From positions 1 through 59,850 of the forward strand of contig CAZWGG010000001.1 of NCBI GenBank assembly GCA_964633305.1: a stretch of DNA of 59,850 nucleotides, written 5' to 3'. Shown piece after piece: positions 50,701 to 50,850 of the stretch; position 1 is the first letter of the stretch; every line of letters begins with the position of its first letter. The notes beneath the pieces were generated by a model that saw only the letters and a program-made list of their open reading frames with translations, made no database searches and was not told where the DNA came from. The position numbers and the translations under genes are program-made. This DNA comes from an uncultured Bacteroidales bacterium (GTDB lineage: Bacteria > Bacteroidota > Bacteroidia > Bacteroidales > UBA10428).

Positions 50701-50729
50701 TTGACAAAATAAAAGTTCTTTGGTATCCT
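50701..50729 (+). promoter_or_regulatory. promoter TTGACA-17-TATCCT
   Basis: -35 at 50701-50706 and -10 at 50724-50729. Confidence 0.45.
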
Positions 50730-50746
50730 AAAATAAATTAATATGA

Positions 50747-50850
50747 GTTTTGTTATGTATGCGTCCCATAACAAAGTTCATATAAAGAACTATAAAGTAT
50801 TCATTAATCAAGAGGACGCAAACCATTGATTAATGAATACTTTTTATTTT
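50747..50850 (+). ncRNA. structured RNA (leader/attenuator or small RNA): two hairpins with complementary loops, the second being a strong terminator
   Basis: Hairpin 1: 50749-50757/50767-50775. Hairpin 2: 18-bp perfect stem 50794-50811/50826-50843 plus a T-run. Loop sequences TGCGTCC (50760-50766) and GGACGCA (50814-50820) are complementary. Confidence 0.45.

Follow-up and report, generated by a model that had tools for sequence, protein, structure and literature searches.

A stretch of 59,850 nucleotides from an assembly assigned to an uncultured Bacteroidales bacterium (GCA_964633305.1, contig CAZWGG010000001.1; hereafter "the window") is a whole phage-like contig with ~26% G+C and nearly all of its genes on the + strand. 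Between an open reading frame (ORF) that ends at position 50700 and an ERCC4-type nuclease gene that starts at position 50861 lie, in order, a promoter-like site, two long hairpins, a U-tract and a ribosome site. The loops of the two hairpins are complementary to one another. We refer to this arrangement as element A. Judged by comparison with its relatives in the same assembly and in other uncultured phages, the element belongs to a real, conserved and undescribed family of structured leaders. Here, we describe its anatomy, its distribution and possible ways in which it acts.

Paired hairpins upstream of the ERCC4 nuclease gene

The ORF at 50861–51328 encodes an ERCC4 nuclease (Pfam PF02732, 2e-16; phrog_3490, 3e-36). 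Element A and the start of this gene comprise the following features:

50701–50729, + strand: promoter-like site from a consensus scan, with TTGACA (50701–50706), a 17-nt spacer and TATCCT (50724–50729); TG at 50721–50722 makes it an extended −10
50741–50783, + strand: first hairpin (H1), folded with RNAfold; 17 bp (50741–50757 with 50767–50783), closing G-C pair, 9-nt loop UAUGCGUCC
50760–50766, + strand: loop-1 strand of the loop–loop helix, UGCGUCC
50784–50793, + strand: linker of 10 nt, A-rich and single-stranded, AAAGAACUAU
50794–50843, + strand: second hairpin (H2); 18 perfect bp (50794–50811 with 50826–50843), 14-nt loop
50814–50820, + strand: loop-2 strand of the loop–loop helix, GGACGCA
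50844–50850, + strand: U-tract UUAUUUU; if the last three U of the stem are included, it reads UUUUUAUUUU
50851–50854 and 50861, + strand: ribosome site GAGG and ATG of the ERCC4-type nuclease gene, which runs to 51328

The promoter-like site begins directly 3′ of the TAA stop codon of the ORF at 50374–50700, has 10 of 12 consensus matches together with the TG, and is separated from H1 by 11 nt. Most of these features had been listed in an initial annotation of the window. That annotation had described the same TTGACA-17-TATCCT promoter, to which we add the TG of the extended −10. It had given the first hairpin as 9 bp (50749–50757/50767–50775); these pairs are present, but the full stem predicted by RNAfold has 17 bp. 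The perfect 18-bp hairpin followed by TTATTTT, the ribosome site ahead of 50861 and the complement between TGCGTCC and GGACGCA in the two loops were all found where they had been described.

H2 is the stem of a terminator-like structure, which a terminator scan misses solely because the loop is longer than 8 nt. This loop reads GAGGACGCAAACCA, with the layout GA-GGACGCA-AACCA, and its seven bases GGACGCA are complementary to the seven bases UGCGUCC of loop 1. GGACGCA and its complement together occur twice in the 59.85-kb window, both times in the loops of element A. The proposal of a structured RNA on the + strand is borne out by two properties. First, the 118-nt RNA of element A folds with −36.1 kcal/mol (z = −7.0), and none of 200 shuffled sequences folds equally well. 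Second, H1 contains two adjacent G·U pairs and hence folds perfectly only on the + strand.

Other pairings that involve element A are less compelling. The initial annotation had also noted that AGTTCTTT (50714–50721) pairs with AAAGAACT (50784–50791). Both sequences exist, but complements of at least 9 nt arise in 24 of 200 shuffles of the upstream stretch. Moreover, AGTTCTTT is part of the promoter spacer and precedes the likely start, and an equivalent pairing is absent from the other copies of the element. As a separate observation, the extended −10 at 50721–50729 (TGGTATCCT) is a perfect 9-nt complement of 50876–50884 (AGGATACCA), which covers codons 6–8 of the ERCC4 gene within the invariant DTRE motif of the nuclease. 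In transcripts that read through from upstream, this pairing would span the whole of element A and the start codon; pairing of this type was not seen in L003, the closest ERCC4 homologue. A 28-codon ORF inside element A (50743–50829) was dropped as a candidate; it is not conserved in the second copy in the window, which has ATG CAT TGA.

Copies of the element and compensatory changes in their loops

We searched for further copies with a custom scanner for adjacent long hairpins with complementary loops, run on the window, on the 6.26-Mb assembly and on fetched loci. In the assembly, three hairpin pairs have a GC-rich loop complement of at least 6 nt, and all three are copies of the element. 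One is element A. The second, element B, lies in the window upstream of a gene for a ParB-like N6/N4 DNA methyltransferase (PF01555, 6e-31):

9400–9427, + strand: promoter-like site with TTGATT, a 16-nt spacer and TGtTATAAT, 10 nt past the stop codon of the ORF at 8853–9389
9436–9476, + strand: H1 with 16 positions, one U·U, closing G-C pair and 9-nt loop AUUCCCGCC
9453/9454–9460, + strand: loop-1 strand of the loop–loop helix
9487–9534, + strand: H2, 17 bp with a 14-nt loop (GA-GGCGGGA-ACUUU), terminator-like by scan
9506–9512/9513, + strand: loop-2 strand of the loop–loop helix
9535–9541, + strand: U-tract, followed by GGAGG (9542–46) and ATG (9552) of the gene, which runs to 10760

The linker of element B is 10 nt long, and its loops carry UUCCCGCC, which is complementary to GGCGGGAA. 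The third copy, C2, lies on another phage contig before a HIRAN gene, with loop sequence UUCAGCCC facing GGGCUGA(A).

Seven more copies in related uncultured phages bring the number of canonical copies to ten. The closest ERCC4 homologue in IMG/VR, L003 (protein 50% identical), has the same upstream layout with other loop letters. Scanning of fetched loci located one copy before a Bro-N gene that is itself upstream of ERCC4 (L020), and another before a ParB-Dam methylase (L410). A covariance model built from six copies and run over phages related by their large terminase (TerL) then yielded L447, L448, L449 and L457, and a looser variant, L450. The L448 copy precedes a ParB-methylase, the L449 copy an AntA antirepressor, and the L457 copy a PseB-like dehydratase on a 59.9-kb phage contig binned in a "Spirochaetes" metagenome-assembled genome (MAG). 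L450 and L457 were oriented by their U-tract and gene direction, since the near-palindromic hairpins make strand calls by the model unreliable. A further locus, L011, has two hairpins with a 6-bp, G·U-containing loop match; it lies off the family loop pattern and was left out as doubtful.

The canonical copies have nearly uniform dimensions, measured on nine of them; L457, read from its sequence, fits. H1 has 17 bp and is closed by G-C, and loop 1 has exactly 9 nt (N-W-U-N5-C). An A-rich linker of 8–17 nt leads to H2, which has 16–18 bp and a stability of −16 to −23 kcal/mol. Loop 2 has 13–14 nt and consists of GA (UA in L449), G-N5-A (G-N5-G in L449) and then 4–5 nt. A U-rich tail follows H2 in all ten copies. 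The Shine–Dalgarno sequence and ATG lie 17–26 nt past H2 in nine copies, and in L457, too, they follow directly. The register of the loop–loop helix is constant in all ten, with loop-1 positions 3–9 pairing with loop-2 positions 3–9 (U-N5-C : G-N5-A). This helix has 7–8 bp, is GC-rich, and has a duplex energy of −12 to −15 kcal/mol, comparable with that of H1 itself. Its five central pairs vary among copies and are always compensated, giving at least nine different codes (loop 1 / loop 2):

Element A (window 50760): UGCGUCC / GGACGCA
Element B (window 9454): UCCCGCC / GGCGGGA
C2: UCAGCCC / GGGCUGA
L003: UGGCCUC / GAGGCCA
L020: UGACCGC / GCGGUCA
L410 and L457: UCGCAGC / GCUGCGA
L447: UCCCGUC / GACGGGA
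L448: UGCCGCC / GGUGGCA (one G·U keeps the helix)
L449: CCCUACC / GGUAGGG

Covariation was assessed on a covariance-model-based alignment of nine copies, because MAFFT misaligned H2. The loop–loop helix is outside the covariance model, meaning that the alignment is not fitted to it. Overall, 98.6% of alignment cells are paired, compared with 69% in shuffles, none of which (0 of 500) attains this level, and 31–45% when the partners are slid. Double changes affect 14 of 17 pairs in H1, 16 of 17 in H2, and 6 of 7 in the loop–loop helix. The few unpaired loop–loop cells stem from C2, which is one column out of register in H1 and pairs perfectly when aligned by hand. L003, L020 and L410 have near-identical H1 stems and differ at two to five of the five central loop positions, with each change compensated; L410 and L457 share a code and have different H2 stems. 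G·U pairs occur in all three helices, on the gene strand only, and a U·G is conserved in 5 of 9 H2 stems. The copies compared here show a common anatomy, its conservation, and covariation of all three helices. The initial annotation had suggested that the two loops form a kissing or pseudoknot contact and had proposed covariation in related phages as a check; the loop complementarity is indeed conserved through compensatory changes, and the contact is strongly supported by these changes in ten homologous elements.

The element has a narrow distribution. Most ERCC4 homologues (L015, L016, L018, L098–L102 and others) lack it; therefore, it is not tied to the ERCC4 gene. A specific H1 pattern matched only L382 (the same phage as L003) and L410 in IMG/VR, and almost all of the matches listed for two loose IUPAC patterns in the same database are due to chance. 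Covariance models R1 and R2 found nothing beyond the assembly's three copies in 77 same-family or 400 same-class genomes, with few candidates scored per genome and hence limited sensitivity, and covariance models found nothing in four complete related phages (G103, G104, G109 and G117). Nucleotide searches with the element region gave no match among GenBank phages, in near or distant modes, and only noise among 60 related genomes. L017, a relative that is 99% identical and shares its source metagenome with L003, differs by a 333-bp insertion (L017 618–950; window 50696/50687) exactly upstream of TTGACA. Because the insertion falls exactly at this position, the promoter, hairpins and gene appear to travel as a unit. 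L017 also lacks a 69-aa ORF, 52671–52880 (window 52657–52870). On this comparison, the two differences are fresh cassette gain and loss events. As sampled here, a small group of uncultured AT-rich phages carries the element as an optional cassette and places it ahead of accessory genes, namely those for nucleases, methylases, antirepressors and glycans. On contig C2, the HIRAN gene is closely followed (L415 6997–7371, + strand) by an inverted fragment resembling the ParB-methylase of the window (STEQGKRSDLTCGQ.DHKLKTAEKLG), which is probably a remnant of cassette exchange.

The contig of the window has 26.5% G+C, against a median of 33% in its own assembly, and its phage encodes a classical TerL, for which a tblastn search against cultured phages gave no match. 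Elsewhere in the window, the ORF-free region 149–589, beside the replication-protein end of the contig, contains many GGTTTCA/TGAAACC iterons and (TA)n tracts and is a likely origin; a hairpin pair with complementary loops at 148–261 is an artefact of the GTTTCA iterons and was discarded. Just after the ORF at 13440–14630, a lone Rfam CRISPR-DR14 match (14638–14666, − strand; E = 0.011, with 45.6 bits at a gathering score of 45) may represent a solitary repeat unit or have arisen by chance. In two of the related phages, the TerL genes are apparently split by intein or HNH-type insertions (L410 2056–4433, − strand; L448 1–1461), with LAGLIDADG/Hint-like "VHN" ends and a separate HNH ORF.

Leader arrangement and proposed control of termination

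Before its function as a leader is considered, the element has to be placed at the level of RNA or DNA. A DNA-level element could be an operator, a cruciform, a single-strand origin or a primosome site. The perfect palindromes could extrude as a cruciform, and the outer AAAGTAT/ATACTTT of H2 resembles a half-site of an operator of the phage, which had led to the earlier suggestion that H2 doubles as an operator. The sequence AAAGTA(A/T)TACTTT, a 13-bp palindrome with half-sites 1 bp apart, forms the true operator; it lies between −35 and −10 at both 48.57 and 51.85 kb. H2 of element A shares only the common 7–8-mer with it, in two copies ~35 bp apart. AAAGTAT occurs 28 times in the window, AAAGTATT with its 28 occurrences is not above chance, and the motif is absent from the other copies of the element. 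Moreover, the G·U pairs of H1, of 5 of 9 H2 stems and of the L448 loop–loop helix would be A·C mismatches on the other strand, and it is invariably the gene strand on which a U-tract and ribosome site come next. Both points favor an RNA, or at least a role of the + strand, over a duplex-DNA site, and we regard a DNA-level role as highly improbable. The operator palindrome itself lies within two TTGACA promoters (48562–48615 and 51831–51883), one of which is divergent from an 80-aa minus-strand ORF (51623–51865); this region is ~71% conserved in L019.

The arrangement of the copies is that of a leader. Promoter-like sites end 7–11 nt before H1 in 7 of 10 copies, meaning that the predicted transcript start is at the foot of H1. 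These sites are sigma-70-like (host-type) by consensus and often have an extended −10. In addition to those of elements A and B, they are:

C2: TTGACG-18-TATAAT
L447: TTGTAT-17-TATAAT
L448: TTGACA-17-TATAAT
L449: TGaTATAAT
L457: TTGGCA-17-TGaTACAAT

In all ten canonical copies, H2 is laid out like an intrinsic terminator, with a stable hairpin and, directly after it on the transcribed strand, a U-tract. The ribosome site comes so soon after the U-tract that no further promoter fits in between, and transcription of the downstream gene would therefore depend entirely on read-through of H2. The initial annotation had left the choice between a small RNA and a terminator-containing leader; the leader fits better, with the Shine–Dalgarno sequence and ATG 17–26 nt past H2. 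Judged from this layout, the element is a 5′ leader that contains a terminator-like hairpin, and this holds even if the terminated product has a role of its own.

Some transcripts may also arrive from upstream. In element B, the promoter spacer (9410–9420) is complementary over 11 nt to the upper 5′ arm and loop of H1 (9447–9457), and in C2 (reverse complement of L415) the spacer is complementary over 10 nt to the top of H1. Complements of these lengths were reached in 2 of 200 and 6 of 200 shuffles, respectively. In such transcripts, the spacer could disable H1. The broader idea of promoter-specific termination through spacer–element pairing was dropped, being significant only in B and C2 and not family-wide.

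Since transcripts would have to pass a putative terminator at H2 to express the gene, the element can be read as a cis-acting attenuator. On balance, we lean toward this reading, that is, a terminator-containing leader whose terminator is controlled through the loop–loop helix. The direction of control is a more tentative matter, and the loop–loop helix may instead be a clamp that aids termination. In the version that we favor, though with less confidence than the attenuator reading itself, the helix would hinder termination and promote read-through, in the following way. H2 and the U-tract would act as an intrinsic terminator that every transcript must read through for the gene to be expressed. 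The loop–loop helix would tie the tips of the two hairpins together. Loop 1, with a 2-nt 5′ flank and no 3′ flank, is shaped like an H-type pseudoknot, whose short loop spans the deep groove, and in that geometry the 7-bp loop–loop helix would stack on the first stem, H1. In loop 2, the 5′ flank is short (GA) and the 3′ flank is longer (4–5 nt), and H1 and H2 are of equal length. H2 would thus lie alongside H1 as a strut, presenting loop 2 to loop 1 within one molecule. As the RNA is synthesized, the polymerase would release the loop-2 strand when ~22 nt are still missing from a finished 3′ arm of H2. Early pairing of this strand with the already folded loop 1 would join the linker, H1, the loop helix and the 5′ arm of H2 into a closed ring. 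To complete H2, its 3′ arm would need to make ~1.5 turns about one side of the ring while the polymerase still holds it. Completion of the terminator stem would be hindered, and the polymerase would read through. Prior occupation of loop 1 or loop 2 would restore termination; candidate blockers are a structure-binding protein or, in trans, a terminated leader that carries the same code. The differing 5-nt codes would prevent cross-talk among copies A, B and C2 in one cell.

Several points weigh against this reading. Promoters and terminators were called from consensus matches only, and in three copies (L003, L020 and L410) no clear promoter is apparent immediately 5′ of H1. The AT-rich stem and unusually large loop of H2 are atypical for a terminator. 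Nascent-RNA folding gave no classical, conserved alternative antiterminator helix, and the direction of control rests on a kinetic and topological argument. In the variant L450, the gene lies 200 nt downstream. The phages also give little indication of a host: L454, L455 and L456, phage contigs of ~58–60 kb from the same group, are binned in MAGs labelled Spirochaetes, Ignavibacteria and "uncultured archaeon", which indicates that the labels of TerL-related phage contigs are binning artefacts and unreliable as host evidence.

Two other readings would account for the same arrangement at the RNA level. In the first, the element is a stand-alone small RNA gene, and the ~105- to 110-nt promoter-to-terminator product is the functional molecule, acting in trans. 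Loop pairing could either make the fold compact and resistant to nucleases or link two or more copies through their loops; the product could, for example, be an immunity-type RNA, similar to P4 CI or P1 c4, directed against incoming phages of the same code. A strong predicted promoter that abuts H1 and a terminator that follows H2 are what such a gene would have. Codes diversify faster than the H1 stem in L003, L020 and L410, as expected of a specificity determinant, and antirepressor genes (Bro-N and AntA) lie downstream in two copies, as in P1 c4-ant. A closed head-to-tail dimer would be geometrically possible; however, the unequal flanks of loop 2 (2 versus 4–5 nt) and the equal stems would favor a side-by-side intramolecular fold. 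Neither 7-mer has another site in the phage. The downstream gene lacks its own promoter in 10 of 10 canonical copies, such that the RNA is necessarily also a leader. We consider a stand-alone small RNA unlikely.

The second reading is an ordinary terminator of the upstream operon combined with a 5′ stabilizer hairpin, the loop–loop helix being a structural clamp with no regulated switch. The clamp would make the terminator or insulator more efficient or more stable, and H1 would protect the 5′ end of the transcript. Hairpins at 5′ termini are mRNA stabilizers, long AT-rich hairpin terminators are common in the phage of the window, and the promoter overlaps or abuts the upstream stop codon. However, if the terminator works efficiently and unconditionally, a promoter on its upstream side would leave the following gene silent, and the strict stem and loop sizes, together with a 7-bp helix that is kept through at least nine codes, amount to excess constraint. 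A plain terminator of this type is quite unlikely in our estimation.

Returning to the cis-acting attenuator, the elements of the proposal can be combined into an RNA-only, address-coded transcription switch, in which the nascent loop–loop helix locks the terminator open and terminated leaders with the same address re-arm it in trans. We find this full version doubtful. If correct, it would give each cassette a self-limiting or immunity-like channel, with diversifying addresses keeping the channels orthogonal within and between co-infecting phages, and it would help to explain how mosaic phage cassettes bring their own regulation. If the loop–loop helix controls the terminator, the element would be a compact (~105 nt) gene switch with neither ligand nor protein, and would add a new mechanism to bacterial transcription attenuation.

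Comparison with known systems

An Rfam 15 scan of the window and six homologous loci, a check that had been proposed earlier, assigned the element to no family at the gathering threshold and gave only far-below-threshold look-alikes among miRNA and snoRNA hairpins; a full-text literature search found no description of such a leader. Several known RNAs share individual properties with the element.

The P1/P7 c4 RNA is a same-strand leader RNA that controls an antirepressor operon. P4 CI RNA is also a same-strand leader RNA, and it controls transcription termination through pairing of seqB with seqA/seqC (PMC4825925). The element resembles both in being a same-strand leader RNA with short complements within one transcript. 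A further likeness is that the complementary bases of CI and c4 differ, with compensation, among heteroimmune relatives; here, 6 of 7 pairs are double-changed. By contrast, CI and c4 are cut from the leader (RNase P), pair with linear targets or ribosome sites, and act with Rho, whereas the element pairs two intact hairpin loops, and its target is the loop of an intrinsic terminator rather than a ribosome site. The Rfam model for C4 antisense RNA did not match the element. Gifsy-1 IsrK is a promoter-proximal small RNA that ends at an intrinsic terminator; some read-through yields the downstream phage mRNA, and the short form acts on the long form (PMC4825925). The element would likewise have a short, terminated form and a read-through form. 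IsrK, however, acts on translation of the read-through mRNA, lacks twin hairpins with complementary loops, and has no sequence or model similarity to the element.

In cobalamin riboswitches, the loop of an upstream hairpin (L5) pairs with the loop of the expression-platform hairpin (L13), and this contact decides expression (PMC6158498). There, a large ligand-bound aptamer licenses kissing; the upstream partner in the element is a plain 17-bp hairpin, and Rfam riboswitch models did not match it.

Strong promoters followed within ~100–200 nt by a terminator that is overcome for downstream expression are known from lambdoid phages (PR′-6S RNA-tR′), and the HK022 put RNA is a two-hairpin RNA located just after a promoter that changes termination. 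Unlike the element, neither is known to have loop–loop pairing; Q protein is loaded at the PR′ promoter, and put acts on the polymerase and is not itself a terminator. The pRNA of phi29 has two loops with covarying complementarity, the letters of which differ among related phages. Its loops pair between molecules, and the resulting ring sits on the packaging motor of small phages whose replication uses a terminal protein. The phage of the window, by contrast, encodes a classical TerL, and its element occurs two to three times per assembly, as a gene leader.

In the antisense attenuators of pT181, pIP501 and pAMbeta1, loop–loop kissing with the nascent leader decides whether a terminator forms before the gene. 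Changed loop letters give orthogonal pairs in these systems (PMC3753616). They differ from the element in using an opposite-strand countertranscript and mutually exclusive helices; the two loops of the element share one RNA. On the opposite strand, a promoter scan found no promoter-like site in element A and only two weak matches (9/12) within or next to element B.

The element differs from each of its nearest counterparts in a defining feature: it has no known processing, ribosome-site target, aptamer, strong opposite-strand promoter or alternative helices. It is also a natural set of orthogonal addresses, with at least nine codes on one scaffold, of the type that synthetic biologists have engineered from pT181.

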